IMG/VR virus record: IMGVR_UViG_3300032038_000076
Span: 845 to 64,844 of that record
Source: a virus
Lineage: Duplodnaviria > Caudoviricetes
Direction: 5' to 3' (one strand)
DNA: 64,000 bases
The notes beneath the pieces are model-generated. The model searched no databases. It was not told the origin of the DNA and saw only the letters and a program-made list of their open reading frames with translations. Made by a program: the position numbers and the translations under genes. The first letter of the stretch is position 1, and every line of letters begins with the position of its first letter. Shown here piece by piece: positions 1 to 51,704 of the stretch.

Positions 1-2
1 CA

Positions 3-3000
3 TTGATAGAAGATCTTAAAACTTTACAAGACTCTCAAATAATTACTAAAGAAAAATTTGAGTAGTTAAAAAAGGCTTTTGATGACGCGAATCAGGTTGG
101 AGCGTCTCAAGATCAAGTTATAAATTTTTATGAAAAATTAGATGCTGCATTAGAAGAATTGAGACCAAAATTAGATCCAGCTACTTTTGAAAAACTTTCT
201 GCGGCATTACATGGAGATTTTTCGCAGGCTGCAGATGAAGCGACTGAAAAAGTACGAACATTATCAGAAACTTTTTCAGATGCAATGGATCGAATGTTTA
301 ATGCTCAAAAATTAAAAACTTTTACTGATACGGTTGGAGCACTTGGTCGTATTGGTTCTGGAATTTCACAACTTAAAAATTTAGGTGGAATTTGGAATAA
401 AGAAGATGTCTCTATAGGAGATAAAATATTACAAACTTTAACAAGTGTTGGATTTGCTTTGCCGATGGTTGTTTCAGGAATAAAAAATCTTGGGGCAGCA
501 TTAAGTCTAACAGGAAAAACTTTATCAGCTTTTAATGGTATTGCAATTGCTTTTACCGCTATCACTACTGTTATTGGTTTTGTAAATTCTGCCTTAAAAT
601 AGCATCAAGAAAATTTAAGAAAATAGAAAGAGTAGGCTATTGAAACTCAAAATAAATTACAATAGCAAATTGTTAAACAAGAATAGTTATGTAAATCCTT
701 AGATGATTTAAATGAAAAAACTCAAAGTGGATAGTTAAGTAGAGCTGATTTAAGATCTGAAATAGATGAATTAGTTAAATCTTATGATATTGAAGATGAA
801 CGAATTAAACAATTAAAAGGAACTTATGAAGAGACGACAAAAGCTATTCGTTAGATGCGTGAATAGGCCTTAACATCTAAAGAAGAGTCAACAGCAACTG
901 AATTGGAAAATGCTCGTGGATTAGTTTGGAATAAAAATAAAAATGTTGGTGTTGGAACAGCAGAATGGCGAGACTATACTAATGGTAAATATAATTTAAC
1001 TTTATCTGAAAGTGCTCAATATGATGATCAAAATATTAGACAAACAATGATGTCTATATTGAAAAATAGTAGTCTTTATACTCAAATTGCTGGTGAAGAA
1101 TTTGATCCTAATGCTGAAGATCCTTACGCTTCTTTTTCGCAAATTGCTTTATCCACTGAAGATTCTGTAGAAGGTTTTATTAGTCTTTATGAAGAGCTAT
1201 TAAGAATACAAGAATAGGCTAGTAAACAATTAGGAGATAATGTTGAAAATTCACAATCGTTTCAATTAATTACAGATTGGTTAAATGGAATGTCTTAGGC
1301 TTATGATCAATATACTAAAGCTATAGAAGATCATAAGACTGCAGTTGCTCAATTATAGGCATTTAATTTATAGAATTAGTTTAAAAATATTAAATCTTAT
1401 ACAGATTATATTGAAGCTAAAAATAAATTAATTCAAAGTATGAAAAAGTCTGGAGATTACGGATAGGGTGAATCTCTTGATATGGAATCTTTATTGGCTG
1501 ATGCTGACAAAATAATGTCTGATATGTATTCAGATGTATTGGATAAATATTCTTTAATTGATCAAATAAAAAATAAATTTTCTGAGAGTTTTGGTGATTT
1601 GATGCCAATTGAAGCGATTCAAACCTTAGAAAATATGTCTATTGAACAGTTAGAAGAAGCTTTATCTTTAAAAAATACTTCTGTTATAAAGTCTTGGGAA
1701 GATTTTATAAAAATATTACAATAGACAGAAGAAGCTGCTGATGGTGTGGCGGCCGCAACAGAAGGGGCAAAAAAAGCTGGCGAAATTGTTCCTAAAGTTA
1801 CTCCAGAATAGATGCGTCAACAAGCTATTGATCAATATAAAAATTATACTTCTGTTGAAGATAAAGTTAGAAAAGGTTAGAATATTTCAGATGAACAATT
1901 CAGCTTATTAGATGCATAGGTTCAGCAAATGTTTGCAGATACAGCTGATGGTATGCATAAATTTATTGGTGATGCTGAAATATTTTATGAAAAAATCAAT
2001 AGTTTAAAGGTTGATGGTTTTGAAAATGCTATAAAATTTGTTCAAGACGAAATTGATAAATTATCTCAATATCAAAATCGTCAAAAATTTGATTATCAAA
2101 CATTAAACCAAGAAGCTTCAAGATCAGTAAAAGACACAAATGGTGTTGCTGTTAATTTAAATGAATTGATGGCTGCTCAACTTGATTATATAAAAACTTT
2201 TGGCAATGCATCCACTCAACAAATGGATATTTGGGAAAAGAATTTGGATGCATTAATGTCTGGTCAGCTTTTTGGTCAACCATTGCAAGATTTTGCTACT
2301 TAGTTAGCTAGTACCGTTAGCAATATAGGAATAGTTGATGTTGAAGGGCAATTAGCTACATTAAATCAACTTCTTCCTGGCTTATCTAATCAGTTAGCAG
2401 ATGCTAGTAAAGGTCCAAATGGATTATCCGCAGATTAGATTAGACAAAATGCTGCAGATGAATATAATAAGTATCAAGGTCTTATTGATGCTACTAAAGA
2501 TGGCGGAACTATTTCAGAATAGCTGTTTAATAGTTTAAATGAAGGCATCCAAGGATTCTTTGAAGTTGCTGGCGTTGGTATTTATAAATTAAAGGATAAT
2601 GCATAGGGATTTGAATAGGCAGTTAATAAAATAAGTTTAGATTCTTTACGTAAAGGGATTGAAGATTTAGAAACAGCAAAAGCTTCTGCCTAGAGTAATT
2701 TTAATAGAGGTAATTAGCTAAGAGATAGAGGTACTTATATTAATCAAGATACTTCTGCCGCAGATTTTGCTAAATATTCTAAGGATTATGATCTTTTAAA
2801 GAAACAAGCTGATTTTATAAGTAAAATGAATCCAGATGACGCTGACATTCAAAAACAAGTTGAAGGTTGGAAATAGATAATAGAAGCCGCGGAAAAAGCT
2901 GGTAGCGGAATTAAAAAGTCTATTTTAAATTAGATAATGTCTGGATTAGATAATGCTATTGCTCAAACTTCACTTTGGGGAAATGAATAGTAGGCTAAAT

Positions 3001-6000
3001 TAGCTACTATGAAATAGGAATTAGCTGTTTTACAGCAAATGGCTATTGAAGAAGCAAATAATAAAAAAATTGCAGAGGCTCAAAATCAAAAAGATTAGGC
3101 AATTAATCAAATACATAATTATGATGATGTTCAAAATGCTATACAAGGTGGAGAAACTATTACTGAAGATCAGTTTAATATGCTTCCAGATGCAGTAAAG
3201 GCTTATTTTGAAAATACTGGAGATTTTACATATGCAATAAAAGATGGTATGGAAGCTGTTGCTTCAGCAGTAGTAGACAGCGCTCGTCAATATGCCTTTG
3301 AACCAGCTCTGGCTACAATAGGAGATTAGCTTTATAAATTTGATCAATTAAAGGCTAATAATTTTGATTATTAGAATGTTCAAAAACAAAGTGACACTGA
3401 TCAATATGGTCAAATAAATAAAGATAATCTTGAATTAAAATTACAATATTTAGATGCTCTCGGTTTAGAAGATCAAAAAGTTCAAGATATTATTAATAAA
3501 GGCCGTGAGATGATTGAAAATGGCAAGGCTGATCATTAGGTTATACAAGATATTAATAAATTATATAATGAGCAAGGCGATCAAACTGAACAATTAACAG
3601 AAAGGCATAAAGAATTAAGTGAAATCCAATTAGGAATGCTAGAAGCTCAATAGGCATTAAATTAGCAAAATTCTTTTACTCTTGATTCAGATATTAAAGT
3701 TGATTAGTTAGAAGATCTTACTGAATATTTAATGGATTTTGCTAAATAGCTTGAAGATATTCCAGATTACTTAGAAGAAAACGAAGAAGCTGCGAGAGAT
3801 TATGCTCAATCTATTTTAAGATTTGATGATGCAATTAAAGATACTGTAAAAAATTATGATAAATGGTCTAAAGCTTTAGATAGTGGAAGTATTCAAGAGC
3901 AAGCTGAAGCAGTCGCCGAATTAAAAGATACTTATGCTGATTTATTAGACATTAGTGAAGAAAGTCTTACTCCAGAGTTTTTATCTGATCCACAAAATTT
4001 AGAAAATTTAAGAGCGGTTACTGAAGGAGCTGAAAATGCAGAGGAAGCATACCTTGCTTTACAAATGGCTGCGGCAGACGCTATTTTAATGGACGTAGAT
4101 ATGGATGCTTCCGGTTTTTATAATGAATTGGATGCATTAACTACTCAATATTTAGGTCAATCAATTGGTGAATTAACAGCAGATGCTAATTTAAATGATG
4201 ATCAGTTTTTAGCAGCATTAAGTAATTTATTATCTCAACTTGGTATTGGTGCGACTCAGGCTCGAGAGCTAATGAAAAATTTTGGTATGAATGTCAAAAT
4301 TAAAGAAGCTTAGCCAAAAACCCAACAAGTCTCAACGTCCGCACAATATTGGGTGCCTGCAACTTATGAAGTAGAACCTATGGATGTTAGTGGCTAGGAA
4401 AAACAAGGAACTTATTATGCTTTAAAAAAGGTTAGAGATGGTTATTGGGTTCCTAGAACTGAAACTCATACTGAATTAGTTGCACCTGGTGCTGGTGCGA
4501 TTTAGGTAGAAAATGCAGGGGTAACTGCTGGTGGTGATGTTAAATATGAAAACGCCACAAATGGTGGCGGTTCTGCCGGTGCAGCTCGTCGTGCTCCGTC
4601 TGGAGGTGGCGGAGGAGGCCGCGGTGGCGGAGGAGGCCGCGGTGGCGGAGGAGGAAAAAAAGGAGGCGGCGGAAAAGGCAAAAAAGGCAGCGGTTCTTCT
4701 AAAGAAAAAGAAAAATAGAAAGAAAAATAGAAAAAAGAAAAACATGAAGATTAGGTTGATATTTATCATGACGTAAATAAAGAACTTAGTAATATAGAAC
4801 GAGCTTTAGGACGCCTTCAAAAGAAACAGGATAAATTATGGGGTAAGCAATTACTTAATAATTTAAATAAACAATCCGCCTTACTTGAACAACATAAACA
4901 AAAGCTTCAAGAAAAACTTGCTTTACAGCAAAAAGACCTTGCTAATAAACGTAAAGATCTTGAATTACTTGGTGCTACATTTGATGAATATGGTAATATT
5001 TCTAACTATGTTGAACTTGTTAGTAAGAAACAATAGATCTTAAATAAATTAATTGATAAATATAATAAACTTGTTGAAAAATATAATAAAGCAACAAGTG
5101 AAAAAAAGAAAAAAGATCTTGAAGAACGTATTTAGAAGTTTGAAAAAGAAATTAAAGATGCTGAAAAATAGCTTGACGACTTAGAAGATAAGGTTAAAGA
5201 CTATGATTCTCTTCAAGAAGATATGGCAGATGTTCAAGATCAAATTGAAGATGATATTCAACAACAAATTTAGATCAATATAAAGAAGTTTAGAATGTCC
5301 ATTGAGATTCGTCTTGAGATGGGCTAGGCTGAACGTGATTGGAATAAATTTGTGCGAGAAGTTATGCATCATACCGATGTTATTAAAGATTCTCCATTCG
5401 ATAAAATTTTCCAAGATGCTAAACAGCAATTAGATGATGTAATGTCTTACTTTGATGTTCATGGTGCGGGAAGCACTTTAACTGCACTTGTAAATCAAAT
5501 GTATGCAACTAAAGATCAGATTGAACAAATTAATGCTACTGGGTGGTCTAGCATTTATGGTGATAATAATGGAACTGCTATGTAGGATCTTCAAAGTGAT
5601 CTTGATACATTAATGTCTCAAATGTAGGATATTGAATCCTTATTGGATAATATTGATCAAGCCTATCTTGATACTATAGATGATGTGCAGGATAATTTTG
5701 ATAAGCAAATAGATGACTATGAATATGTTACAGATTTAATTGAACATGATATTGATTTATTAGAACTTTTATATGGTGAAAAGAATTATAATGCTATGAA
5801 TGAGTATTATACAACCTTAGAAAGAAATCAAACTAATCAATTAGATGCATTGCGGAAGCAGGCAGAGTTCTGGAAAAAGCAATGGTAGGGAGCTGCCGCG
5901 GCAGGAGATTCTGAAGCTGCAAAGAAATTTGAAGAAAATTATAGATAGGCACTTAATAATTTAAATTCTGTTATTGAAGAAGCTGCACAAACCATTCAAA

Positions 6001-7763
6001 ATAAATATATTAATGTTATTGATAGAATTTTTGATACATTAGATAAAAAAATTTCCAATGGTCTTGGAACAGGTTATTTAGATATGTAGTGGTAGTTAAT
6101 GAATAAAAATGCTGAAACATATTTAGATACTGTTAATGCTGCTTTTGCAATTCAAGAATTACAAATAAAATATAATAAAGCTATTAACGATACTAAATCT
6201 ATTAAAAATCAACAGACATTAAAAGAATTAATGGATGAACAGTTAGAGAATTTAAGAAATAAGGAAAAGATATCTCAATATGATGTCGATAGAGCAGAAA
6301 AATTATTACAAATTGAACAAGCTAGAATTGCTTTAGAAGATGCCCAATCTAGTAAAACTTCTTTAAGATTAAAACGAGATTCTCAAGGTAATTATTCTTA
6401 TCAATATGTTTCTGACGCGGATAAGGCGTTATAGGCTCAATAGAAATTAAATGAAGCACAAAATGATTTATATAATTTTGATAAATAGGCTTATAAATCT
6501 AATTTAGATGAAATGCTTGCCATGTGGGAAGAATTTCAAGAAAAATATAGATAGATTGTTCTTGACACTTCTTTAACAGAAGAATAGAGAATTAGGGATT
6601 TAGCTTTATTAAGAGAAGAATATGGAGAAAAAATAAATGCTCTTACAGAAAAAAATTCCATTATAAGACAAAATCTTCTTAGTTCTACTTTTGATAATAT
6701 TAATAATTTATATCAGCAAGATGTGGCTAATTATCAACAAATGTCCGATGAATAGAAGAATATTTTAATGGGTGATTTAATTCCTATGTGGACTAGCGGC
6801 ATTCAGAAAATGGCTGATAAAGTGGCTAAATAGGGTGGATTTATTCCAATGTGTAAAGAAGCTTTTGAATAGGTCTATAACGCAACAAGAAAATATAAAG
6901 AAGAATTAAATGATATGGCTCGGGTTGCGGGCATTAGTTTAATGGATGTTAGATCTGGTGTAGATGAATTATCTATGTCTTTCCAAAATCTTATTATAGA
7001 TAATAATGAATTAATAAGTTGTATGTTCCAAGAAATAAGTGCAATTCAAGAGCTACGAATGGAAGCATAGGCTTTAGTAATGCAATATCAAAATGTTTAT
7101 TAGTCTGCACTACAAGCGGCATCTGCAATTCATGAGTTTATTCAGGCTCAACGGGCGCAAGCTGCTGCACAAGCCGAAATGGTAGCCGCTGTACAAGCGC
7201 AAGCACAACAAGCTCAACAACAAGCTGCTTCATCTTCTTCAAGCGGAGGCGGGAAAAATAAGAATAAAGGCGATCTTTGGGTTAAAAATGCTGATTCTAT
7301 AACTCTTGAAGATGGAACTTAGGTTATAACAGAACCTAATAAATGGTATAATTTAAACACTGGTTAGCAAGAAAATCCTCCAAAAAATAAAAATAAAAAT
7401 AATAAGAAAAATAAGAGTTCTAAATTCGATACTGGTGGATATACTGGAGATTGGCATTCTTCTGAAGGCAAATTCGCTGTGCTTCATGAAAAAGAATTAG
7501 TATTAAATCAATCAGATACTAAAAATCTTTTAAATTCTGTTTCAATTTTAAGAGATCTTGCTAATAATGCTCAAATTAATATAGCTTCTAAATTAGGAGA
7601 TTTAGGATCATTTGGTAATTCTATTTTTGAAAATAAAGATACAATAGAACAAAATGTGCAAATTTCTGCAACATTCCCGAATGTTAATAGTAAACAATAG
7701 ATTGAAGATGCTTTTAATGATTTAATTAATCTCGCCGCACAACGTGCAATGAGAAATAGATAA
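3..7763 (+). CDS. Tape measure protein (5'-truncated by window edge, >2580 aa, many in-frame TAG read-throughs)
   Basis: Track ORFs at 159, 903, 1482, 1929, 4065, 5352, 5643, 6099 and 7479 share one frame separated only by TAG; first TAA at 7761. Helical/coiled-coil composition; C-terminal FDTGGYTG...VLHEKELVLN motif typical of TMP ends. Confidence 0.85.
4605..4655 (+). repeat. 18-nt tandem repeat (ggtggcggaggaggccgc) encoding a Gly/Arg-rich linker in the TMP
   Basis: Two full and one partial copy; GC-rich patch in AT-rich DNA. Confidence 0.9.
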
Positions 7764-8018: not shown

Positions 8019-8048
8019 ATAATAAGGAAATACAAGGAGGATTCATTG

Positions 8049-11000
8049 ATGAGCGTAAGTGAAAAAGTCCTTGATGCTATTGAATTATTAGCTGCAAATT
8101 CAGTTGAAAAAGCTGGATATGATAGAACAATTCAAGCTCAGATTTTATCATGTTAGGATGCTACTATTGGAAAATATAGATGTCGATATCAAGATGCTAT
8201 ATTTTATGCGTATTCTAATTCAACGGATATTAGTTATTCTGCTCGTTCTTATGTTTATATATTAATTCCAGGAAATGATATGAGTAGATAGAAAACCATT
8301 CTTGGTACTACTAAAAAATTAGGAATTAATTATATATCTGCCGCTTAGGGGAAATAGGCTTATAATATTATAGGTTCTAATGGAGTTGTGTCTAATGATA
8401 TTTATTATTTAGATACTAATTTAAATACTTATTCATATGTTATATATGATAGTGATAGAGATCAAAATACAATTGATATAGATGTAGATTCATTAGAAAG
8501 ATATATAAAATAGTCTTCTTCTTTAATTGCAGGAGCCACGTTTAAAACAAATATTCCATCAAATCATCAATCAAATGGTCATTATGGAATTACTTTTTAT
8601 TTAGAGTTTATAGATAACACTTCTTCAAATAAAAATGTTATTCGATCATATACTATTGATTAGGATAATATGGTGGATAATCCTTATAGATTGATTTATC
8701 CAACAGAGCAATACCAAATATTTGATATTGATGGAGTGAATTTTGTTAAATTAAAATCAATTTAGATTTTTTGTGAATAGTTTCCAGAGTCCGAAGGAAC
8801 AAGTGAATAGTTATTAACTTTTGGAGATATTTAGATTTCTGAATTGGAAATTTTTGGAGCAAATAGATTAACTGAAGAATAGTTGAATGGTGTTGCTATA
8901 ACATTTTTTACTCCATAGGGGAATTTTTTCCCACAAGGAAGTGGATCAAATACTTATAGAGATATAATTGCTCAAGTTAGAGTTAAAGGAAAATTAGTAT
9001 CAAGTGATCAGAATCTTTCATTTTATTGGGGAAGTGAAAATGTTGGTATTTTATCTAGCAGTGAAAATTATAATAAATATTTAGGGCGTGGTTGGTAGTG
9101 TCTAAATGATAAAAATATTGTAGCACCAGCAACTTTGACGACAGATCCTGTAATTGAATGGATACCTAGTACGGATACATATAGATTAAAATTTAATGAA
9201 GCGACTGCAAAAAATAATAGATTTAAAGTTGCAGTTATTTATGATGAAAATGTTATTACTAGAGAAATAAATATTCAAAATTTAGCAAAAAACGTTCCTT
9301 CTTTATCTATTGTTTCTAATAGTGGAATTAAATTTTATCATGATATTGGACATCCTACTTTAACTTGTTTGGTAAATGGACAAGAAAAATTAAATTATAC
9401 TTATGCGTGGGCAAAAGAAGATAATACAAGTAATTTTGTTCAATTACAAACAACAACAGAAGAAAATGATGCATATAATCAAGCTATTGCGGATTTCTCT
9501 GTATTACAACAAGCAATTGAAAATGGAACCAAATTTCAAAATAAAGAAAGTGAAGAGTTAGCAAGATTAACTTCTTTAATTAATAGTTTTAATTTCATTA
9601 CAAGAGTAGAAGGAAATAAACTTTATGATGTACAAATTAGAGATATTACAAATTTTGCTAATTTTAAATGTTCTGTATATAATGAAAATAATGTTTATTT
9701 AGGAACAACTTCTATTACTTTAATTAATTCTTTACAAACTGAAGATTTATATTCGTTAGTAATTAATAATGGAACTGTTGGGTTTAAATATAATGAAAAT
9801 GGTATTGCACCAAATAATAAAAGTTTAGATATGCCTCAAATTATTAAAAGTTTATCTTTTACTATTTATGATAATTTAGGCAATGCTATAGATAATGATA
9901 TAGTAACAAGATCAGCTGATTGTAAAATTCGATGGGCTTTTCCATTAAAAGATACATTATTAATAGATAGCGAAAATAATGGGGTTCCAAGTATAGAATC
10001 GACAGGAGAGTATTCATATTTTGATAACATACCTACATTAATGTATAATATTGCAACTAGGTATGATATAAAAAAACAAAATAATGAAATTAAATTAAAT
10101 GTAAAATTTAAAGGGTATACTTTAACTGCAGTTACTAATTTTACTTTTACTAAAGACGGAGATCCTGGAACAAATGGAACATAGTTTATTTTAAAAATCG
10201 TTCCTAGAACAAAAATGTCAAATCCACCATTATATCCAATGATTACAAAAGTAAATAATGGTGGGTATTATTTAAATTATGGAATAGATTCTACTGCAAC
10301 TGAGATGGAAATCAGTGCAAATAGTGAATATAGATTTTTTAATGCTGAACTATATCGAGATGGAGAATTAGTTTGGAATAGTACTGGAACTAATATTTAG
10401 AATGTTCAAACCACAATTGTTTGGAGTGTTTTAGCAAATAAATATAATAAAGATTATTCTGATAGTTCTGCTTTTATAGTCTCTAATGCTTCATCTGGTA
10501 GAATAAAATATACAGGAGATTATTTACAATCTGCTTTTACAACGCCTTTAGCAAATATTATAAAATGTAGTGTAGTATATAATGGAAAAACTTATTATGC
10601 TACAATGCCTATTATAACTGCATGGGTTTATAATGATAATTATAGAATAGCTTTAAAAGAATATACAGGATTTAGGTATGTAATTTATACATCAGATGGA
10701 GTATTACCTTCATATGATAATTCTCATCCTTTTGAATTTATTTGTAAAGAAAAAATTAATAATTTTGAAGAAGATATTTCTTTAATTAATAATGGGACTC
10801 ACAGAATTCAATATACAGCATCAGTTATTGGAAATATAAAATCAACATTTGATGGAACAGCTAGTAATAGTAATAATTTAACAATATTAACTAGTACGAG
10901 TGCTAGAAAAGGATTGACTAAAAACCAATTTCTTTTAAAACCTTCTGATAGATATAATGGTGAATGTGTAAATAATGCCTTACTTTGTGAATTTAAAAGA

Positions 11001-12566
11001 GAACAAGACAATGTTATTATAGGAAAAATTAACATTCCTATTCATCTTTTGTTAAATAAATTTGGGTTAGATAATATTAATGTTTGGGATGGCAATAGTA
11101 TTCAAATCAACCAAGATGGTGGATATATATTATCTCCTCAAATGGGCGCGGGCACTAAAGATAATAATAATAGATTTACTGGTGTCTTAATGGGATAGGT
11201 TAAAATTCCAGGAAAACAAGACTCTGATAAAGGATTATTAGGGTATCATCAGGGTGAAAGATCTTTCTTTTTAAGTAGTACAAATGGCTCTGGAATTTTT
11301 GGTAAAGCAGGTAAAGGACAAATTATTGTAGACCCAACTCAAAATCAGGCGTTATTATATAGTGGGAATTTTTGGACAACCTATAATACTTCGACTGGAT
11401 TACCGGCGTCATATGGCACTTCTAATTATAAAGAAGAAGGTTTATTAATTGATTTAACTACTCCTCAGATTATTTTTGGTAATGGAAATTTTAAAGTTGA
11501 TTCAAATGGACACTTGACCGCAAAAGGCGGTGGAACAATAGCTAAATGGAAAATTTTAGACGATCATTTAACTAGTGATACTAATAGTATTACTTTACAT
11601 TCAAATGGGACATTATATTCTGGATCTCATTCTGCTTTGGCAAATACTAGTAATGGTTTCTATATAGGATCAGATGGATTATCAATTGGTAGTAAATTTA
11701 AAGTTACAGCCACTGGAGAATTAGCTATTGGAAATGGAGCTACTGCTGGAAATTCTAAACATTGGAAAATAAATGGTGATAGTTCTAGATCATATATAGC
11801 TTATGGGGATAGTTCAAATGATACTTCTTTTGTTGCAGCAAATTCAAAAACAACTAATAAGAATCAAGTATATATAGGTACTGATGGAATTTCATTAGGA
11901 AGAAGATTTTCAGTTAGCGCAGCAGGAAATTTAATAGCTTATACAGGAAATATAGGTAGTTGGACTATTCAACCTGGCTCAATAACTTATAATACAACTG
12001 ATACATTTAATGGTAGTTCTGGAATTTATTTTGGGACTGGTGGTATTCGTTTAGGATCTGCTTTTAGTGTTACTGCAGGTGGAGTATTGAAATGTTCTGG
12101 GGCGACAGTTTCTGGTACACTATCTTCTAATGGTGGGACATTTACTAATATTACTGCATCTGGTGGGACATTTACAAGTATTACTGCAAATGGTGGCAAT
12201 TTTAATAATATTACTGCTTATGGGACTATATCTTCTACTGGAGGAACGTTTACTAATATTAGTGCGACTGGAGGAACATTTAGTAATATTTATGCAAGCG
12301 GCGGAACATTTAGTAATATAAATGCAAGTGGCGGAACATTTAGTAATATAAATGCTTCTGGAGCTACTATTAATTATTTATATTATGGAGGCAGTTATGT
12401 TTCTTGGCAAGCTATTAATGTTTTAACTGGAATTACAGCAGAAAAAGTGGCTGTAGCTTATGGCAATGGTTCTGTTAATGTAGTACAAAAATTACATCGA
12501 ACTTATACGACAATAACTTTTTTATGTCCTTCTTATAATTCTTGGTCTGATTATGATTATTCTTAA
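8049..12566 (+). CDS. Large tail/baseplate-hub-like protein (1505 aa, TAG read-through)
   Basis: GGAGG RBS; track ORFs 9135, 10215, 10605 and 11514 in one frame joined by TAG; beta-rich C-terminus with GWTI-like motifs; follows TMP. Confidence 0.7.
12132..12362 (+). repeat. 10-aa repeat GGTF(S/T)NI(N/T/Y/S)AS, about 7 copies
   Basis: Direct translation; near-identical 30-nt units at 12300-12360. Confidence 0.9.
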
Positions 12567-13571: not shown

Positions 13572-14060
13572 TCACTCCCAATTAATCTAATTGTCAAATT
13601 TTTCCCAATAGGCATCAAATATACAAATAGCATCTGCCTAATCATCATTTACTTTTATATTATATTTATCCTATACATATTTAATGTCTTGCATTTTAAG
13701 CGGGTCTCTTTTTATACCTGGTCCCTGTTTTATTTTAAGCGCTGCCCGCCACGTTACAGCATTAATATATTCCTACTCAATAGAAGGATTAGCTTCATGC
13801 GCGGCGATGATAATTGCACCTTGCAACCACATTAATATTTTATTAGTGTGTGAATTATATTCTGGTCTAACCTACTATATAATAATTTTATCTATTTTAT
13901 TTTCTTTAATCAGCTTAGATATCTATTCCCGCATTTTTATTATTCTTTTAACTGTATCTTTTGATGCGGCAGTTATGCAACCATGCTTTTTAAGCTTACC
14001 ATTCTATCCTATTGCATATCCAGTTGAATGAGTTGAAGCATCTATTGATAATATTTTCAT
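13572..14060 (-). CDS. ruvC: RuvC-like Holliday junction resolvase (162 aa, 8 TAG)
   Basis: ILSIDASTHSTG ... DKIII**VRPE ... VTWRAAL ... NDD*ADAICI; not in the ORF track because of TAGs. Confidence 0.8.
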
Positions 14061-14245
14061 AATTTTCATCTCCTTTTCGAGGCCATTATAACAAAAATTT
14101 TTAAAAATATCAAGTCAAATTATTGGTCAAGGATTTATAATTTATTACAATAAATTTTGAAATATAGAGTAAGGATAATTTAATATTATTCTCATATACG
14201 CGTATAAGTTAGTTATTAAAGACGTCTCTCGGAGGTAGTAATTTT

Positions 14246-14545
14246 ATGGCAAATTACAATAATCCAAATATTGGTACATTGCAACAGCCTAATTTAATAG
14301 GTCAACAGCCGCAAATGCCAAGAGATATGATGCGTGATCCGCGGTAGGGTAGAAGCCCAATGCGCCGCCGCATGTATATGGAAGGTAAGGAAATGCATAA
14401 AGATACTAATTCTCAATTAAAAGAATTAGAGGCTTACTTACAAGAATTATCTAGTGATATTACTGAAATGATTAAGGATGCGTCTCCAGAAGAAAGGGCA
14501 ACGTTACATCAGAAGATGACAACGTTGGCTAATAAGATCGTTTAA
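14246..14545 (+). CDS. Conserved phage hypothetical protein (99 aa, 1 TAG)
   Basis: GGAGG RBS; MRDPR*GRSPMRRRMYME joins track ORF 14360. Confidence 0.75.
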
Positions 14546-14557: not shown

Positions 14558-14869
14558 ATGTTTCTAAACAATGTTTATTGGAAACTGGCTTTTGTCTCTC
14601 CAGATTTTCCTCTTTTGCGGAGGATGTCTGGAGAGTACTCCATAGGTGCTTGTGATAATTTAACTAGAACTATTTATATAAATGAGACGCTATATGGTAG
14701 TTTATTAAAGAAGGTGCTTTGTCACGAAATCACCCACGCCGCGATGTTCTCTTATAATGTTGATCTTTCTATTGAACAAGAAGAATTAGTTGCGGATTTG
14801 ATCTCTACTTATGGAGATTAGATTATTTATATTACAAATAAAATTTTTATTAAATTGGGTAATATATGA
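14558..14869 (+). CDS. HExxH metallopeptidase-like protein (103 aa, 1 TAG)
   Basis: LCHEITHA ... EQEELVAD motif. Confidence 0.65.
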
Positions 14870-14991: not shown

Positions 14992-15450
14992 ATGAGTATA
15001 TATGAATTATATAAAAGCATAATTTTTAATGGAAATTATGTTGTTTCAGATATGGAATAGAGAATTGAAACTGTTTATGCATCAGGAAAAATTACTGCAG
15101 AAGAAAGAGCTGAGCTTTTAAATTTAGCTGGTGAAAATGCAAAAGAAAGTGTTCAGATTGATGTAATGGCAAAACTTGCAGAATTTGAAGTTCGAATTAC
15201 AAGACTTGAAGCCAAAGGAGTTGTAGTTTGGACTTCTGGGCATATTACTGCTAAAGGAGAAACAGTTCTTTATGATGTTGATAAAGATGGAAAACTTGAA
15301 TATTGTAGATATGATGGTGGTAGATCTTCTACGACACTTAGTCCTGGTAAAATTGATGGATGGGTTGTCCTTAATGCAGAAGGCGGTTAGGTAGTTGGAA
15401 CACTGTAGAAAAATGAGAATGGGCAAATTGTTATTATTCCTGTTTAGTGA
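14992..15450 (+). CDS. Hypothetical virion-associated protein (about 152 aa, TAG read-through)
   Basis: AAGGAG RBS; frame of track ORF 15166; ends TAG TGA. Confidence 0.65.
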
Positions 15451-15595
15451 TTCAGATTAAAAGAAATAAAATAAACTATTATTAATAATAAATGCGGTAA
15501 TTAAATAAATATTCAAAAATAATATTATTGTTTACAGAAGAGATATGTTATTAATTACCGCATTTTAGTAACTTGTGGAGAAAGGAAGAATATTT

Positions 15596-17134
15596 ATGGA
15601 TAAAATGACTTCCATACGGATTAAACTTGAAAATGGGACATATTCGGAGAAAATACCTTTAAGTGTTCTTGCTACTAATATAAATTGGGATAATACTCAT
15701 TCATTAGTAGATGTTCTTGGAAATGTAGATCTTACAAAAGGAAATTTACAAGCACAAATTGATGAAAAAATTAATGTGCAAATAGATGATTCTTTATCTA
15801 TCGAAGGAGACGCCGCGGATGCTAAGATCGTTGGAGATAATTTTACAATATTAAATAATAATATTAGTACATTAGAAACAAATAAACAAAATATATTAAC
15901 ATTTGATAAGACTCCTGCGTCTGGTTCAACAAATCCAGTTACTTCTGGTGGCATTAAAGCTGCAATAAATAAAGTTGAACAAACTTGTTCTAATATTAGT
16001 ACTGAGTTAGGAAAATCTTATGTTAGTAAAAATTCACAAAATTTTACAAATGAATAGAAAGAACAGATAAGAAAAAATATAGGCTTATCAAATGGAGATG
16101 CTGCAGCTAATGGATTTAATGAAACAGTAAGAACTGCTTTTTTAAATGCTTTAGATCATTTAGTTTGGGATTCATCTGATCCTTCTGGCCAGACTTATAT
16201 AAATGCTATTAGGGAAGCTATTACTCCAAAAGTTCAATATATTATAACTATATTTGAAGCGCCAGAATCTGGATATGTTTAGTATACAGCACCTCAATCA
16301 GCTGTTCTTGAATAGATAAAAAAATATCTTACTGTTATAGCTAAATATACAGATGGCTCTTAGAAAGAAATTACAGAAAATTATTCAATTTCAGCATCAA
16401 TAGCTGAAAGTGGATTAGCTAGGGTTATAGTTACATATCAGGAGAAAACATCAACACCTTTTTAGGTTATGTGTAAAAATAAAAATAATTTATTATATGA
16501 TTGGAATTTTAAAACATCATTATTTGATAAAATTAATTATGTTAAGGCAGAAGTGTCTGCAGCAGATGGTGTATAGCCGCCAGCTAGGACAAGTGAAGGA
16601 GTAGTATTTAATGCATCAACTCAAAGGTTGTGTCTTGGATCTATTAATATGGTTGGAAAAACAATTGAATTTGTTATATCACAGTTTAATTTTGTAGGTA
16701 ATACTAAAAAACATTGTAGATTGTTAATGAATCAAAACAGTGAAGCATCAAATGCTGTTGGAGCTGGTGCTTTAGTATTCCGTTCTGGATATGGATGGTC
16801 TTCATATGGTTATACAGATGCTGAACATACTGAAGCTGGATATCGAGGATGGTCTGCTAATGGTTGGGGAAATTTATATAATCCTGATCAAATAAATTTC
16901 TTTAATAATAAGACAGTAAGAATTAAATATTGTTAGGATGGGTTTACTAGGAAACTTTATGTAGATGGAGAACTTATCGCTACGATGTCAGATATTTATT
17001 TTAATAAGAATTCTACAATTATTAGTTTTGGTGGCGGACCAACTTATTCACAAAATAGTGGCGATCAATGTTATAATATGACTATATCAGCTGTTCGTAT
17101 ATATAATAAAGATTTTTAGGAAGAAGGAGCATAA
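15596..17134 (+). CDS. Tail fibre/adhesin with Ig-like and ConA/LamG-like regions (512 aa)
   Basis: Track ORFs 15575 and 16628 in one frame; N-terminus paralogous to the 17992 gene; KKYLTVIAKYTDGS Ig-like motif; LYVDGEL LamG-like motif. Confidence 0.65.
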
Positions 17135-17140
17135 ATATAA

Positions 17141-17947
17141 ATGGGCGTATATTCTAAAAATGGTATTCAGTTAGATCAAACTTTTAATTATGATACTAGT
17201 ATAAAAAGTATTAATCATCGAGGTTTTTCCAACCTCGCTCCAGAAAATACTCTTCCCGCCTACGTATAGTCAAAACGTCATGGATATACTTATGTAGAAA
17301 CAGATGTTTCTTTTACTTCTGATAATATACCTGTATTACTTCATGATGCAACAATTGATAGAACATCTAATGGTACTGGTACATTATCTAAAATGACATA
17401 TGATCAAGTAAAAACATATGATTTTGGATCTTGGAAAGATGCTAAATATACAGGAGTATAGATTCCTACTTTGAATGATTTTTTAACAATATGTAAGTTA
17501 TTAGGATTAAAACCTTATATAGAATTAAAAGATAATGGAGCATATACAAATGCTCAAATTAAGCAAATTGTAGATATGGTTCAAAGACATGGGATGAAAG
17601 AAAACAGTACTTATATATCATTTAACGCAGATTATCTTCAAGCAATAAAAGAATTAGATAGCAAAGCGCGATTAGGATTTTTAAAAGGCGCTCAAGCTAA
17701 TTATACCTAGGATTTAGTTATTTGTAATAATTTAAAAACATCTACTAATAAAGTATTTTATGATGTTCGTTATGATAAGGTAACTTAGTAGATGATAGAA
17801 GCATTATCTGCGCAAGATATGCCTATTGAGGTATGGACAATTGATGATAAAGAGACTGTTTGGGATTTAGATGATTATATAACTGGAGTAACGACAAATT
17901 CATTAAATGTTGGAAAAATATTTGTTGAACATGTTTTATTGCAATAA
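17141..17947 (+). CDS. Glycerophosphodiester phosphodiesterase (GDPD), probably virion-associated (268 aa)
   Basis: INHRG...APENTLPA...YVETDV...LLHDATIDRT...IELK...EVWTID...GVTTN. Confidence 0.9.
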
Positions 17948-17991: not shown

Positions 17992-20900
17992 ATGGATAAA
18001 TTAACTGCCATAAAAATTAAGCACGATGATGGAACATTGTCTAATGAAATTCCTATTAGTGTTTTTGTATAGAATATTGTATGGGACAATACTCATACTT
18101 TAGTTGATGTCCTCGGTAATGTTGATTTGATGTCAGGAACTATCCAGCAACAGATTAAGCAATTACTCAATAATAAAGTTGATTATACACAATTAGGAAA
18201 TTATGTAGATCGTCAAATTAGTATTGATGTAAAAAAATGGATGGATCAAAATATTAATTCGGCAGGTTCAGTTGTTATAGATACTAGTTTAACAGTATCT
18301 GGTGCTGCTGCAGAAGCTGAAGCAACTGGAAATAGAATTCAAACATTAACCACTCAAACTCAAAATCAAATACAAGCATTAAATACTTAGCTCACAGAGC
18401 AAATGCAAACTTTAAGTGATGATACTTAGGAAGCATTATCAACTTTAAGTTCTGAAACTCAAACACAAATGCAAACATTAAATACTCAACTTACAACGCA
18501 AATGCAAACATTGAGTGAAAAAACTTAGAGTTCTTTATAGACATTAAATAGTGATATTTATAATCGAATGCAAACATTGAGTAATTAGACTCAAAGTCAA
18601 TTAGAAGCATTAAATAGTACATTTTCAGATTAGTTAGATACATTGAGTGAATAGACTTAGACAAAATTACAAACATTAAGTACGCAAACTGCCACTCAAT
18701 TTTAGACAGTAAATGGTTAGATTCAAACTTTAACTAATAATTTAGCAACTACTAATGGTACAGTTGGTTCACTTTCTTCATCTCTTAGTACTCTTTCTGC
18801 AGATACCACTAATCAAGCTGAAGCATTAAGTTCCGAAATTCAGACTGTTGCAAATAATGTAGAAAATATTAACTCTACAGTTGACTCCGTTAATCTTGCC
18901 CTTGAAGATTTTGTTAATGATGGATATGTTGAAAATGGAGTCGCTTATTTTGTACATAATGGAGAAATACTCTTCCAAATCACTGGTATTGGTGGTGGCG
19001 GAGGAGGCGGTGGCGGCGGAGGCGGAGATACTAATAATGCCACACTTACCGTCGTTAATAATACTGGATGGTTATCAAGAACAATTGCCTCAGGTGCTTC
19101 TTGTCCAATTGTTATTAATTGGAGTTCTATAGAAGATAAGATGCCTACTGGGGATGGTACTGCACAAATTTCAATTAATGGAATTTTAAAATCAACTCAG
19201 GGCATTCGACAAGGAGATGTAACAATAGATATTGGAAGTTATGTATCTGCAGGTTCTAATATTGTAAAAGTAAGAATATCAGATGTTTATAATAATTCTA
19301 GAACTATTAATTTTAATGTAACAGTAGTAGTTTTATCTATTAGTTCTACATTTGATAGTTCTGTTGTTTATACAGATACGATTCCATTTCCATATACACC
19401 TGTTGGGGCAGTTCCTAAAACTGTTCATTTTGTTTTAGATGGAAGACAATTAACTACTCAACAGACTTCTGTGTCTGGAAGACAAATTACTTATGTTATT
19501 CCCGCACAAAGTACAGGAAGCCATTCTTTAAAAGTTTATTTTGAATCTGAAATTAATAATGAAGTAGTTAGTTCAAATGAATTATATTATGAGTTTATTT
19601 CAAGTGCTACAGGTAGTAATACTGTGATTATTACGAGTCCTTATAATAAGACTTCATAGCAACAATATACTTCAATTGTTATTCCATATACAGTATATAA
19701 TCCAAATAATTTAACTTCTGAAGTTAGTATATATGCAAATAATGAATTGTTATCTACTCAAATTGTAGATAGAACAGAGCAATCTTATACATATAGAGCA
19801 GAAGTTGATGGGCCCTTAGAAATTAAAATTCAAAGTGGTAGCGCAGTTAAAATAATTAATATTAATATTATAAAATTAAATATTAATGTAGCTGCATAGA
19901 CTGAAGATTTAGTTTTATATCTTACTTCAAAAGGAAGAAGTAATCGAGAACTTAATCCTGCAATATGGAAATATCATGATATTGATGCAACATTTACTAA
20001 TTTTAATTGGGTTTCAGATGGATGGCAAACAGATTCAGAAGGTATTGTTTGTTTAAGAGTTTCTGGAGATGCTAGAGTAACAATACCATATAAATTATTT
20101 GGCGCTGACTTTAGACGAGCTGGTAAAACAATTGAAATTGAATTTGCTACAAGAAATATTATTAATTATAATACAATAATTTTATCATGTTTTAGCGGTG
20201 GCCGTGGTTTGACCTTAACTTCACAAAGAGCTAGACTTGTTTCAGAGCAATCTACTATTAGTACTCAATATAAAGAAGATGAACATATTCGACTTACTTT
20301 TGTAGCTCAAAAATCTTCTGAAAATAGATTTTTAATGGTTTATATTAATGGTATTCCTTCTGGTGTTGTACAATATCCAGATGATAATGATTTCCAACAA
20401 GATCAACCTGTTGATATTACTATTGGTTCAAATGATTGTGCAATAGATATTTATAATATTAGAGTATATGATAATAGTCTTACTCATCAACAGGTATTGG
20501 ATAACTGGATTGCAGATACACAAAATGGAAGTTTAATGCTTGAACGCTATACACGAAATCAAGTTTATGATGAATACGGAAAAATTGTTACTACTAATCT
20601 TCCTGGTGATCTTCCATATTTTATTTTAAATGCAGAAGAATTGCCACAATTTAAGGGAGATAAAAAGATTATTTCTGGACAATATGTTAATCCAATGTAT
20701 CCATCTCAAAGTTTTACATTTACTGGCTGCCAAATTAATGTACAAGGTACATCTTCTGCACCATATGCAAGAAAAAATTATGACATGCAATTCAAAAATG
20801 GATTTGAAATTGGAAGCGAACATTCAAAGAATTATACACTTGATCCAAGTGTTCTTCCGTTTAATCGTTTTGTTTTAAAAGCTGATGTTGCTTCTTCTGA

Positions 20901-28978: not shown

Positions 28979-31252
28979 TCACCCTCCTTTAATTATTTCG
29001 TATTGATAAGTAATAGTAGCTGAAACTGGAACGCCTACTTCATTAGCATCTACATCCACTAAATACCATTTCCCACCTCTATAAATATATACATTATAAT
29101 CTTCTTTGGTTAATAAAGAATAATCAATAGTAGGTTCAAGTAATACTCCCTATTCTGTTACTGTTAATAGTCTTGACTAATTATTATAATCTACATAATC
29201 ATGTACAGCATTGGTTCTATTAATAATCATTCTATAAAGAGTATTTGTTCTTGGGGACTTAGGAAAATCTTCATAATAACCATCTGCATATGTTTTTACT
29301 ATGGCCTAATGTTTACCGCAAAAATAACAATCTTTAATATATTCATTAACGCCTTGTAATGATAATACTTTATTTGCTGTAAGAATCGAACGAGATGACG
29401 CTTCTTTATCATCTAGTTTTTGAATCTAAAAAATGGCTCTATCTGTTGAAGGTTTAACATCTATTTTTAATATATTTATTAAATTTTTATTAGTAGATGA
29501 AGAAATTCGATTATAAATTTTATTAAAAATAGAATCAAATGCTTCAAAGCTTGCAGTAAAACTACCTTTACCATATTCATGAAAATAATTATTGACAATA
29601 TTATATTTTTTATAATTATCAATAGTAGGCTCATTAATTTCTACCGCAGTCGCGCTAAATGAATATAACCGTCGTCCTAATTCATTCATAGGTTGTAAAT
29701 TAATGTCCATTAATTTAACTAATATATTTCCCTAAGTTAAAGAACGAAATAATTTTGCATCATATTTATAAAGAAAATTTTCAACCTATTGTCTAAATTC
29801 TCTTTCATAAATATAATCTTGATATATATTAATATTATTATTTTCATTATAATTATCATATAAAGATTTAGAATTTTTATATAATTCAAATTTTGATGTA
29901 AATGGTTCTGCAACAATAGCTGAATGGAAATTGTTATCATAATAATTTGGATTATACCAATCAGCATTGTCTATTAAAGAAGTAATTAAGCCACCTATTG
30001 AAAAAGTTCTATAAAAATTATTCCCATTTCTTTTAATGTAAGGGAACTGAGAGCCTAAAGTAACTTGTTGAGATTCCATTACATTATATCTTAAATTAGA
30101 TACGATAGGATTAAATTGAATCTTTAATTGTTTTGATCCATTTGTTAAAAACATATCTTCAAAAACACACATAATAGGCTAATCACTATCAACTAACTTC
30201 CCAATTCCGCCTGTCTATTGAATTCTATATTTATACCACACTCCACTTTCAATTGAAGTATCATACCATATGAAGCCAGATTGAGGGGTTGCAGCATGTG
30301 GAATAGTTTTTATAGTTTCCCATTGAGTAAAATTATTTCTAGAAGAAGATCTTCTTATTATTAAATCTTTATCAGTATATATTGAATTATGAAAAGCAAC
30401 GCTAATTTTAATTCTTCCATTGTCTTCATCTGCCTCAAATGAAGTTATAGCATCTAATAAGAAACTTCTTTGAAAATTAATTTTAAAATTAAAACTTATT
30501 GTATCAGTATATAAATTTTTTGTAGTATAGTTTAAAACTAAAATATAGTTTATATCATTTAATAAGTCATATTTTATTTCACAATTAATTTCATTTGGAT
30601 TATAACTGTTTGTATAAATCTAATTACTTGTAAATATTAAATTATTATTAGATATAATATCTTGATATATTTTTATATTATAACTTCTTAAATATTCTTG
30701 CTCTTTAACATTGTTATTATAATACATTTTACCTACAATTTCTGTTAAAGGAGCCTATAAAATTGTTACTCCACCTAAATCAAAATTCTAAATAGAGATA
30801 CGTGGCTGTTCAATTCCTTTAATTAAACATACAATAGACCATTCTGAAAAATAATCTTTATTATCAGATAACCAAGTATTTAATTTTGTTCCTGTAGATG
30901 GCGGATCTGCTGCTTCTGTAGATGTAAATCTTAATTGAACTTTATAAAATTGATTTAACTAAAATACACCATTTACTAAATCAGAAGGAGCAATCTAAAT
31001 ATAATATTTATAGTTATCTAAAACCGACTAATCCTATTTAATAGTTGTAATTTTAATACCAGATGGATATAAATTAGTTTTAAAAGCAGAAGCATTTGTC
31101 TTCTGATTAATTAAAGTTACCTGAACATTTTTAATATCTTTTATTTGATTAAAAGATGAAAGAGAAAAATGTATTTTACACGTTACTGATCTAATAAATG
31201 CAGGTATAACATCAGGTATTATAGGTGGATATAAATTAGAGACGATACTCAT
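28979..31252 (-). CDS. Distal tail/baseplate-like structural protein (757 aa)
   Basis: Track ORFs 31034, 29786 and 29426 in one frame; NLYPPI N-terminus; FRSLT*GNILVKLMD; stop TGA at 28979. Confidence 0.65.
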
Positions 31253-31284: not shown

Positions 31285-31779
31285 TTAATTACAATAAATT
31301 ACTTTATTCTATTGCGGCGGTTGTTTTGGTAAAGCTCTTAATTCATTCATAAAACCAGCTATAAATGAATTGCCGCCTTCATCTTCATAATGTTGGTAGC
31401 GTCTTTCAAGACAATTAAGACTGAAATCATCAATCCAGCCAACTTGATAACAAAAATAATGATGCTCTCTTGTGATATATGATTTTATGTCATCCTTATC
31501 TGAATCTATTAACATATCAATTTTTGCTGATAAATTTTGAAGAATTTTATCAGTTGCCTATTGATTATTCTTTAAAATAGCTATTGTCTAATTCTATTCT
31601 TGTAATTCTTGTCTTAATTCTTCCTTACTATTTAATTTAGTATGTTCATAATTGAAAATTTTTTTTATTTGTTCATAAGCCCACTCTAAAAAAGTAATAA
31701 AACTTTTTAAAGCTAAAACTAAAAAAATAGTAAAAATTAATATTTCAGATAAGGAATAGCGCTAGAGCAATTCTATCAT
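31285..31779 (-). CDS. Holin-like membrane protein (164 aa, 5 TAG)
   Basis: AGGAGG RBS; N-terminal TM helix, coiled coil, then SDKDDIKSYIT...YEDEGGNSFI. Confidence 0.55.
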
Positions 31780-31861
31780 ACACATTCCTCCTTAGATAAA
31801 AGATTTCTCTTACAATTATTATTAAAATTTTTATAAATCAATTATCCAAGTTAAGCCAAAA

Positions 31862-35592: not shown

Positions 35593-35666
35593 CAGCCCAG
35601 GCTGGATTCGAACCAGCGAAAATGCAGGAGTCAAAGTCCTGTGCCTTACCACTTGGCGACTGGGCT
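35593..35666 (-). tRNA. trnQ: tRNA-Gln(UUG)
   Basis: Cloverleaf, loop CT-TTG-AC, A1-U72, G73. Confidence 0.9.
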
Positions 35667-38431: not shown

Positions 38432-38440
38432 AAATAAAAA

Positions 38441-39803: not shown

Positions 39804-39877
39804 TCACCCGACTGGGATTCGAACCCAGGATCCACTGATTTAGAGTCAGTTATGTTAGACCGCTCCACCATCGGGCG
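39804..39877 (-). tRNA. Amber suppressor tRNA (anticodon CUA)
   Basis: CGCCCGA TG GTGG AGCGGTCTA ACAT A ACTGA-CT CTA AA-TCAGT GGATC CTGGG TTCGAAT CCCAG TCGGGTG A. Confidence 0.93.
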
Positions 39878-39879: not shown

Positions 39880-40410
39880 GGGAACAGGTTTAAGGTCTCT
39901 GTCCCGACCGCTCTCTTCTCAATCAAGTTTCACATGAGCAATGTAAACGGCAGTTTTATATCTTGTCGGATAGAGAGTTTTTTGATATAGTCGTAACTTT
40001 ATCAACCTATACAGCTCACAAGGTATAATGTGGGTAAATGTTCTCTCTCTGCCTGTCCCACCTTGTTGACCACATCTTGCTTTCAATCCATTGATAAATT
40101 CAGTCTATCGTTTATCAATCCCACTATTTTTACAAGTAGATGTATAGCCGAGAGTTTCAACAGCTCTTATCCTCAGGCCCAGCGCTTCCTTATCCTGTGT
40201 TCTATTAAAGTCACAATGCTTTAATCTGTGGTCAAAATAAGATTTATATGAATATAGCTTTGTCCATTTCTTAGGCTCCCTACTCACTATAGCCTAAATT
40301 CCACTGGTCATGACTCCAGCTCCTAGGTAGTCTGCTATGGTCTCTCGCTTCCGACCGCCGCACGTGTGGTGGACTCTCTGATTGTTTATGTACACTATTA
40401 AAATCAGTTA
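39880..40410 (-). ncRNA. Candidate large structured ncRNA (about 530 nt) immediately 5' of the suppressor tRNA
   Basis: Hairpin-dense, no RBS-led ORF. Confidence 0.45.
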
Positions 40411-41403: not shown

Positions 41404-41518
41404 AAACTCCATTTCTAGCGCGCCTAATGGAGCCAAGAAGATGCGCATCTTCTCTAAGATTTTTTTTGTTAATTTTAGGATAAAATCTCTAAAAATTCCT
41501 TTTATTGTTTTATAAAAA

Positions 41519-50780: not shown

Positions 50781-50921
50781 GCGGGTATTACACCACGGAT
50801 CGCCGCATTTCATATGGGTAAAAAATATTAAAGTAGGTAAGCGGGCCAGAAGTGAATAAATAATTTCAAATAGTTTTTATATTATTTGAAAGGAGTTGTT
50901 GCAATTGCAACAAAATAAATA

Positions 50922-51704
50922 ATGAGAATGACAATTGAAGAAATAAGTGAAATGTATGGGTATTCTGTTGTATCTATTCAAAGGAATTTTAAAAGAACCG
51001 CACAATCTATTCAAAAAAAATATGGAATGGATTTATTTAAATGTTAGGGGCCTGATGGAAAAATATTTTATTAGGTATCTTCGCCTCGCGCAGTTACTAT
51101 GTATAGAGAAGTTAAAGATGAATTATATGTTCCTATTGAATCTATAAAAATGGATGATTTAGCTTGTTTTGTTTTAATAGGAGTTGCCGCAACGCCGCAG
51201 GGGGTATTTAGGGGTACTAGACAAAATTTTCTTGATTATATTGGATTATCGCATAATAAAAAAAATATTGAATTATTAAATTAGGTTTTAAATAATTTTA
51301 TAGCTCAAGAAGATTCACCATTAATTTGGCAAGAAGATGATAATTATATTGTTATTTATATAAAAAGAGATTTTGAAAAAAAACAAATTTTAACGATTAA
51401 TATGTTACGAGAATGTCAAAAAATTGCTCAAAAGCATAATAAACAAGCTATGAAGGTTGTTCAATTATTAAAAGTATGGCAAGCTTATAGAATTAATGAA
51501 CAAAAAGGTGTAAATCCGTTAACTAATAAAAATTTACAAGAGTATATTGATTTAAGTGAAAAACAAATTCGTGATGCTCGAAAATTATTATAGGGGGCAG
51601 AAGTTCTTACTACTATGAGAGTTGGAACTCCTACTAAAAGATAGGGGACCGCTTTTTCATTAAATGCATTTACTGATGATAAATTTGTTGTAATAAAAGA
51701 TTAA
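50922..51704 (+). CDS. Putative replication initiator/wHTH DNA-binding protein (260 aa, 5 TAG)
   Basis: Track ORFs 51099 and 51402 in frame; N-terminal HTH-like MTIEEISEMYGYS; C-terminal LTNKNLQEYIDLSEKQIRDARKLL. Confidence 0.5.

Follow-up and report, generated by a model that had tools for sequence, protein, structure and literature searches.

Analysis of a 64,000-nucleotide stretch of a phage genome (IMG/VR record IMGVR_UViG_3300032038_000076; bases 845-64844 of one 64,844-bp contig with a G+C content of ~30%), hereafter called the window, indicates that TAG is very probably a sense codon for glutamate in this phage, with TAA and TGA staying as stops, and that this is in all likelihood a new phage code, a variant of the stop-codon recoding of phages. 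The source is a large rumen-type phage; complete IMG/VR relatives have genomes of 133-144 kb with terminal repeats, and the 64.8-kb contig therefore represents about half a genome. Genes present in the window include those encoding a tape measure protein, tail-fibre-like proteins, a glycerophosphodiester phosphodiesterase (GDPD), a RuvC-like resolvase and a TROVE/vWA RNA-binding protein, together with an array of 14 tRNA genes. The best matching named phages are phages of Lactobacillus, Staphylococcus and Enterococcus, which with the tRNA results given below point to a probable host among the Bacillota.

Translated with table 11, the first 31 kb of the window contain many short open reading frames (ORFs); with TAG read through, the same region holds ORFs of 2586, 1506, 2210, 922 and 757 codons. 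The initial annotation had reported frames of 1.5-7.7 kb that are broken by TAG alone, and this was confirmed, as the ORFs of 2586, 1506 and 2210 amino acids (3..7763, 8046..12566 and 17992..24624, containing 69, 16 and 19 TAG codons, respectively) have no internal TAA or TGA. The non-overlapping set of 75 ORFs contains 220 in-frame TAG codons and every ORF in it terminates in TAA or TGA, TAA closing most of the long ORFs and interrupting none. That the TAG codons are true stops, in genes that are broken, wrongly assembled or subject to low-level read-through, has only the standard meaning of TAG in its favour, and is scarcely credible given that conserved frames as long as 7.7 kb are free of internal TAA and TGA while 220 TAG codons lie in frame, that dozens of independent contigs use TAG in this way, and given the presence of a dedicated tRNA with a CUA anticodon, tRNA(CUA), which is conserved with covarying stems.

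The meaning of TAG was assessed by a codon-aware tally, for which the window ORFs were translated with TAG as X, which scores equally against all residues, and compared by tblastn with 148 related IMG/VR loci; the subject codon under each X was then read, so that database translations had no influence on the tally. A first tally took in off-frame ORFs, giving false signals for Leu, Trp and Tyr, and was repeated on the non-overlapping gene set, where 168 of the 220 TAG sites were covered. Codons opposite TAG were GAA (404), TAG (148), GAG (111), GAT (106), AAA (85) and CAA (61), and the corresponding residue counts were E 515, D 121, K 118, A 109, T 93 and Q 81. When likelihoods were computed with the substitution frequencies of these alignments, Glu scored best, and Gln, Lys and Asp fell 585, 904 and 992 log units lower, respectively. 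In the 57 loci without any in-frame TAG, the counts were 116 for E and below 22 for Q. Two mutations separate TAG from GAA, its most frequent partner, so that the pattern is attributable to selection for the residue and not to mutational neighbourhood.

Sites were counted as well as observations because the loci are related and single observations are not independent. A site was taken as conserved where at least five non-TAG observations were available with 60% agreement, and the 56 conserved TAG sites comprised 41 E, 4 D, 4 K, 2 A, 2 H, 1 Q, 1 T and 1 G. Under the same filter, genuine Glu codons gave 72% E, 9% D and 6% K, and genuine Gln codons 68% Q and 12% E. For the TAG sites, requiring at least eight observations and 80% agreement left E 17, K 2, Q 1 and G 1. 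Judged by these alignments, conserved TAG columns are indistinguishable from genuine Glu columns and unlike Gln columns. A tally of consensus residues at TAG columns had been suggested in the initial annotation as a check on its reading, and the outcome (E at 41 of 56 conserved sites, Q at one) agrees with Glu.

Genes bearing TAG, and the two tRNA genes compared below, are as follows.

1..7763, plus strand: tail tape measure protein, C-terminal 2586 codons, from an ORF that begins upstream of the window (phrog_4211 match, E 1e-12); 69 TAG within the window, 74 in the complete ORF

8046..12566, plus strand: virion or tail protein of 1506 amino acids; 16 TAG

13572..14069, minus strand: RuvC-like Holliday junction resolvase (Pfam RuvC, E 1.1e-5; phrog_827, E 5e-15); 8 TAG

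14246..14545, 14558..14869 and 14992..15450, plus strand: three small late genes; 1, 1 and 4 TAG

15575..17134, plus strand: gene of 519 amino acids; 8 TAG

17141..17947, plus strand: GDPD (Pfam GDPD, E 1e-36); 5 TAG

17992..24624, plus strand: tail-fibre-like gene of 2210 amino acids (CotH, DUF6273); 19 TAG

24694..25929, plus strand: LRR_5/DUF6273 gene; 4 TAG

26204..28972, minus strand: gene of 922 amino acids (phrog_32343); 5 TAG

28979..31252, minus strand: gene of 757 amino acids; 15 TAG

31285..31785, minus strand: gene of 166 amino acids; 5 TAG

50922..51704, plus strand: gene of 260 amino acids, the last long ORF with TAG; 5 TAG

39804..39877, minus strand: suppressor tRNA(CUA) (ARAGORN; Rfam tRNA, 61 bits)

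35593..35666, minus strand: phage tRNA-Gln(UUG), for contrast (Gln profile top, 40.6 bits)

Columns in which the relatives have Glu opposite TAG are spread over many of these genes, including residues 2157, 2477, 2533, 2559 and 2848 of the tape measure protein (E in 8-10 of 8-11 relatives), residues 37, 279 and 713 of 8046..12566 (8/10), residue 34 of 14246..14545 (9/10), residue 88 of 14558..14869 (8/9), residue 636 of 17992..24624 (37/43), residue 306 of 26204..28972 (17/18), residue 507 of 28979..31252 (window position 29732; 20/20) and residue 66 of 31285..31785 (9/11). None of the five TAG codons of the GDPD gene lies at a catalytic position, and alignments with Protein Data Bank structures show variable residues at all five columns, so this gene is uninformative. 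Seven motifs had been listed in the initial annotation as normally carrying Glu at the TAG position, and six of them do so in the relatives, namely RSLT-TAG-GN (E 20/20), DPR-TAG-GRS (E 9), TYGD-TAG-II (E 8), SKQ-TAG-IEDAF (E 10), TNGT-TAG-F (E 8) and DAD-TAG-L (E 2); the seventh, YMN-TAG-IQ, is mixed (K 4, E 3).

Regarding the distribution of TAG, the codon occurs at 16.3 per 1000 codons in 1-31.8 kb versus 6.1 elsewhere; many genes past 31.9 kb have no TAG at all and the final long ORF with TAG ends at 51704. The 1-31.8 kb block contains 172 TAG, 528 GAA and 59 GAG codons, and if TAG is read as Glu, it accounts for roughly one Glu codon in four in this virion, tail and recombination block and is rarer elsewhere. 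Judged by gene type, the recoded codon appears to be enriched in late and structural genes. Other codons also differ between the late block (1-31785) and positions 31894-64000: GAG is depleted (5.6 versus 12.2 per 1000 codons), TAG being three times as frequent as GAG in the late block, and CAA is enriched (38 versus 14 per 1000).

Residues 65 and 66 of the RuvC-like protein are both encoded by TAG at 13872-13877 (III-TAG-TAG-V; residue 65 at 13875-13877), residue 144 is TAG at 13638-13640 (DD-TAG-AD), and residue 161 is TAG in the sequence DN-TAG-INWE; all of these sites, and the tape measure TAG codons at 1878 and 2520, lie where the initial annotation had placed them. Its proposal that III-TAG-TAG-V falls on the catalytic Glu was examined with the RuvC of Escherichia coli, which was taken for alignment because no canonical RuvC was found in five Bacillota genomes. 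In an hhalign alignment (E 3e-5, probability 73%), a profile of the homologues matched E. coli RuvC with D10 on D7 and X65, the first TAG, on E66, as proposed; D143 and D146 match D138 and D141 by motif spacing alone. E66 of RuvC is one of four acidic residues required for cleavage. In the relatives, residue 65 is encoded by GAA, GAG or TAG only, and residue 66 likewise with the addition of one GAT. One TAG thus appears to sit on the predicted catalytic Glu of a RuvC-like resolvase.

At the protein level the picture seems different, as full-length RuvC-like homologues in a large protein collection have many Q at TAG columns, e.g., 47 Q versus 73 E at residue 65, and one protein record has Q at all eight TAG columns. 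The encoding contigs yield those database proteins only with TAG translated as Q, and at four loci (L269-L272) each Q at a RuvC-like TAG column is a TAG codon. The protein-level residue tally was rejected as an artefact, every Q that was checked being a TAG codon; table 15 had been used in calling the clade's proteins in the database. This bears on phage code 15, in which TAG encodes Gln, as in crAss-like, Lak and phAss-1 phages. It is the sole TAG meaning described for phages (10.1101/2021.08.26.457843; PMC9523058; PMC10607447), and the clade's database proteins carry Q at TAG columns; those Q residues, however, are TAG codons translated by table 15, Gln scores far below Glu in the likelihood comparison and is found at one of 56 conserved sites, the code would place Gln on the predicted catalytic Glu of the RuvC-like protein, and the suppressor is unlike tRNA-Gln, whereas a relative with TAG as Gln (record G011, see below) has a suppressor of tRNA-Gln type. 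Code 15 is hence very unlikely for the phage of the window. Where gene callers recognise TAG recoding, they use table 15, and if TAG encodes Glu, the table 15 database proteins of this clade are mistranslated, including the predicted catalytic Glu of the resolvase, and wrong at ~1.6% of late-gene residues.

Several observations weigh against glutamate. Residues 291 and 351 of 8046..12566 are TAG columns with Q in 12/13 and K in 11/13 relatives, residue 489 of 28979..31252 is K in 18/21 and residue 64 of 31285..31785 is G in 12/15, while residue 34 of 39919..40395 has CAG in 4/4. Over all TAG columns about one third of residues are Glu, compared with 48% for genuine Glu codons (first tally), and the two agree at conserved sites only. 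The initial annotation had itself pointed to a repeat at 18.3-18.7 kb as counter-evidence, and indeed a Q/T/S-rich 11-residue repeat (~18262-18780) within the tail-fibre-like gene of 17992..24624 puts TAG mostly in a Gln-rich column; this stretch (~18.26-18.78 kb) is not conserved in relatives and therefore carries little weight. A further argument of the initial annotation, that internal repeats of the tape measure protein align TAG with acidic residues, failed, as no significant internal repeats were detected (blastp, no off-diagonal matches) and the sites at 1878 and 2520 are K, Q, R, E or D in relatives, with no clear Glu signal. In addition, the case for TAG as Glu is built wholly on comparison of sequences. 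The non-Glu columns, the Q-rich repeat and the failed tape measure argument do not outweigh the tallies.

The likely reader of TAG is the tRNA(CUA) at 39804-39877, which folds into a good cloverleaf, with stems that covary across seven related phages (homologues in six relatives). It has the pairs C1-G72, G2.U71, C3-G70, U11-A24 and G13.A22, A at positions 73 and 38, and D and variable loops of 9 and 5 nt, respectively. A search of bacteria with a pattern built from the acceptor-stem positions 2-6 and 67-71 of this tRNA, together with its T loop, matched at least 120 tRNAs, nearly all from Bacillota; 105 of the matches listed were tRNA-Glu. In a reference set of 557 distinct tRNAs from the loci of these matches, the combination of A73, U11-A24, a non-Watson-Crick 13:22 pair and a D loop of at least 8 nt, which was no part of the search pattern, was detected in 43 of 53 distinct tRNA-Glu and in none of the other class I isotypes. 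Reference tRNA-Gln have U1-A72 (35/37), G73 (31/37) and a 7-nt D loop (37/37), none of which is present in tRNA(CUA), and the bacterial tRNA-Gln mark C11-G24 is missing too, the position being occupied by U11-A24. In the tRNA-Gln(UUG) encoded by the phage itself, the first pair is a weak A1-U72, position 73 is G and the D loop is 7 nt long.

Compared with Bacillota tRNA-Glu (UUC/CUC), tRNA(CUA) shares G2.U71, C3-G70, A73, U11-A24, a purine-purine 13:22 pair and a D loop of 8-9 nt, but differs in its CUA instead of a YUC anticodon, in C1-G72 instead of G1-C72 and in A38 instead of C38; its 5-nt variable loop is a minority form in tRNA-Glu (16/53). The first pair and A38 thus count against tRNA-Glu, as does the anticodon, since glutamyl-tRNA synthetase (GluRS) normally reads the anticodon. 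Whole-body profile scores of tRNA(CUA) are ambiguous (Lys 29.2, Glu 28.6, Asp 27.5 and Gln 21.4 bits), although for its closest relatives the Glu profile scores best, and a covariance model of the suppressor family run on five Bacillota genomes gives similar scores (55-62 bits) to Lys, Arg(UCU), Glu and Asp tRNAs, only Gln tRNAs being clearly lower (37-44 bits). This model was rejected as an isotype classifier, being too generic and excluding Gln only, and a plain identity ranking of tRNA(CUA) against phage tRNAs did not discriminate. The 23-nt exact 3' half of tRNA(CUA) was not found in bacterial genomes. From its sequence features tRNA(CUA) would be a derivative or look-alike of Bacillota tRNA-Glu and not tRNA-Glu proper; the tRNA evidence fits Glu and speaks against Gln, but alone would not settle the amino acid.

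That TAG encodes another residue, such as Lys or Asp, could draw on the near-equal whole-body scores of the Lys, Glu and Asp profiles and, for Lys, on A38, which is typical of Lys tRNAs. Such an assignment is nevertheless highly improbable, as both residues fall further below Glu in log-likelihood than Gln does, and reference Lys tRNAs have C11-G24 and a Watson-Crick 13:22 pair and Asp tRNAs have G73.

Two further tRNA-related elements were seen in this region. A tRNA-like gene at 41332-41404 (minus strand) has no ARAGORN assignment and scores 46 bits with Rfam; its D arm resembles that of tRNA-Glu, and the anticodon stem appears to enclose a loop of 8 nt (CGUGAAAA). A partial tRNA match at 37470-37530 (minus strand; Rfam model positions 6-65) has a Gln-like D arm, a GAA anticodon loop and no acceptor stem, and may belong to a small-RNA family.

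When each relative was tallied at its own TAG sites, most of those with enough sites gave Glu; locus L028, for instance, has GAA 277, GAG 49 and CAA 36 times opposite its TAG sites. A different result was obtained for locus L010, which is record G011 (IMGVR_UViG_3300001528_000534; 139,691 bp, terminal repeats) and encodes a protein 46% identical to the 922-amino-acid protein of the window. Its own TAG sites face CAA 201, CAG 56 and GAA 71 times, with 16 conserved Q sites versus 3 E sites. The method is therefore able to return Gln, and both meanings of TAG occur among related phages. The CUA suppressor of G011 lies at G011:1695-1767 on the minus strand (L309:1695-1767), beside its tRNA-Gln; it has U1-A72 and the same D arm and anticodon arm as that tRNA-Gln, scores highest with the Gln profile and, by these shared features, is plainly derived from it. 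G011 thus resembles the phage of the window in genome size, sense TAG and tRNA genes including a CUA suppressor, but differs in that its TAG columns correspond to Gln and the suppressor, with U1-A72, is copied from the neighbouring tRNA-Gln. G011 also has a normal tRNA-Glu(UUC), and the window is without one. An ARAGORN search of 44-92 kb of G011 detected no tRNA; the tRNAs of this record sit at its ends.

More distant relatives lean towards TAG as Gln on few sites, including L054, L056, L061 and several 3300045988 contigs (L030, L031, L038, L040, L055 and L058), and the CUA tRNAs of L054, L056 and L061 are of other body types. The group of related phages may hold several independent recodings. 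Relatives occur beyond one sample type, as the 176-kb record MT835469.1 ('Bacteriophage sp.', unannotated, human faeces) has 73% nucleotide identity to parts of window positions 26956-31502.

Regarding the mechanism, no GluRS or glutaminyl-tRNA synthetase domain was found in five complete relatives, and a host enzyme must therefore charge tRNA(CUA). In many Bacillota, tRNA-Gln is charged with Glu, which is then amidated by the amidotransferase GatCAB. Recognition by bacterial GatCAB relies on the first base pair and on the D loop, and the enzyme tells U1-A72 from G1-C72 (PMC2811023). The acceptor-stem and D-arm marks of Bacillota tRNA-Glu that are kept in tRNA(CUA) could allow the host GluRS to charge it with Glu, and its strong C1-G72 pair and long D loop, in place of U1-A72 and a short D loop, would cause GatCAB to leave the Glu unamidated, while on a suppressor of the G011 type, which has the GatCAB marks, the Glu would be amidated to yield Gln-tRNA. 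We tentatively suggest, as a possibility that falls somewhat short of even chances, that the two TAG meanings in one phage group, the likely Bacillota hosts of which usually lack glutaminyl-tRNA synthetase, arise by one route, in which GluRS charges every suppressor and the GatCAB marks (U1-A72 and a short D loop) decide between Glu and Gln. If so, what a codon encodes would depend on a base pair distant from the anticodon together with the host's set of synthetases. The pairing of a Glu-type suppressor with TAG as Glu and of a Gln-type suppressor with TAG as Gln in related phages suggests a way in which the host synthetase set may decide the meanings open to a captured stop codon.

Ambiguous decoding, in which the suppressor carries both Glu and Gln through partial amidation or two charging routes so that TAG sites contain a mixture, had been put forward in the initial annotation beside Glu. 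As the likely host route to Gln-tRNA runs via Glu-tRNA (PMC2811023), partial conversion is conceivable, and the few conserved TAG columns that are Gln in relatives and the Gln-rich column of the repeat at 18.26-18.78 kb would agree with it. The Gln share at TAG columns (1/56 conserved sites; ~5% of observations), however, equals that of genuine Glu codons, so that no Gln component is needed; tRNA(CUA) has neither the U1-A72 pair nor the short D loop used by GatCAB, and a TAG on the predicted catalytic Glu argues for mainly Glu. Of the two options, Glu was thus favoured by a wide margin across the 148 loci and the mixture is unneeded and, in our assessment, unlikely.

Two genes near the tRNA array were also recorded. 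The gene at 31894-33414 (minus strand) encodes a TROVE-like RNA-binding protein of 506 amino acids (DUF2828/DUF7788, vWA), has no TAG, is conserved in 69 IMG/VR loci and adjoins the tRNA/small-RNA region. Inside the array, an ORF at 37952-38443 (minus strand) encodes a PD-(D/E)XK nuclease (Pfam PDDEXK_5, E 8.5e-14); translation probably starts at M24, which may leave two of the three 'in-frame' TAG codons upstream of the gene.

A full-text literature search for recoded phages yielded only TAG as Gln and TGA as Trp or Gly and no report of TAG as Glu in a phage, in line with the statement of the initial annotation that the described amber recoding of phages gives Gln. The authors of the Lak study observed some TAG codons aligned with E and still concluded Q (PMC8346664), and a late-gene bias of the recoded codon, with which the distribution of TAG in the window agrees, has been described for recoded phages (10.1101/2021.08.26.457843). 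Like the table 15 phages (crAss-like, Lak, phAss-1 and the clades of Borges et al.), the phage of the window has its sense TAG concentrated in late and structural genes and a phage-encoded tRNA(CUA), with no synthetase of its own for it in complete relatives, and keeps TAA and TGA as stops. It differs from them in that TAG would be Glu and not Gln, in a suppressor that does not appear to be a tRNA-Gln derivative, and in a host that is likely to be a Gram-positive member of the Bacillota, where Gln-tRNA is usually made via Glu-tRNA. Outside phages, UAG as Glu is known, as the initial annotation had noted, from some ciliates and trypanosomatids (NCBI table 30, peritrich ciliates; table 31, Blastocrithidia), and of the NCBI tables checked (11, 15, 30 and 31) none has TAG as Glu with TAA and TGA as stops. 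Tables 30 and 31 are eukaryotic nuclear codes in which TAA is Glu too, with TGA as Trp in table 31, whereas TAA is the main stop in the window; and, unlike in those organisms, the code change here would be carried by a virus, the host of which is presumed to use the standard code.

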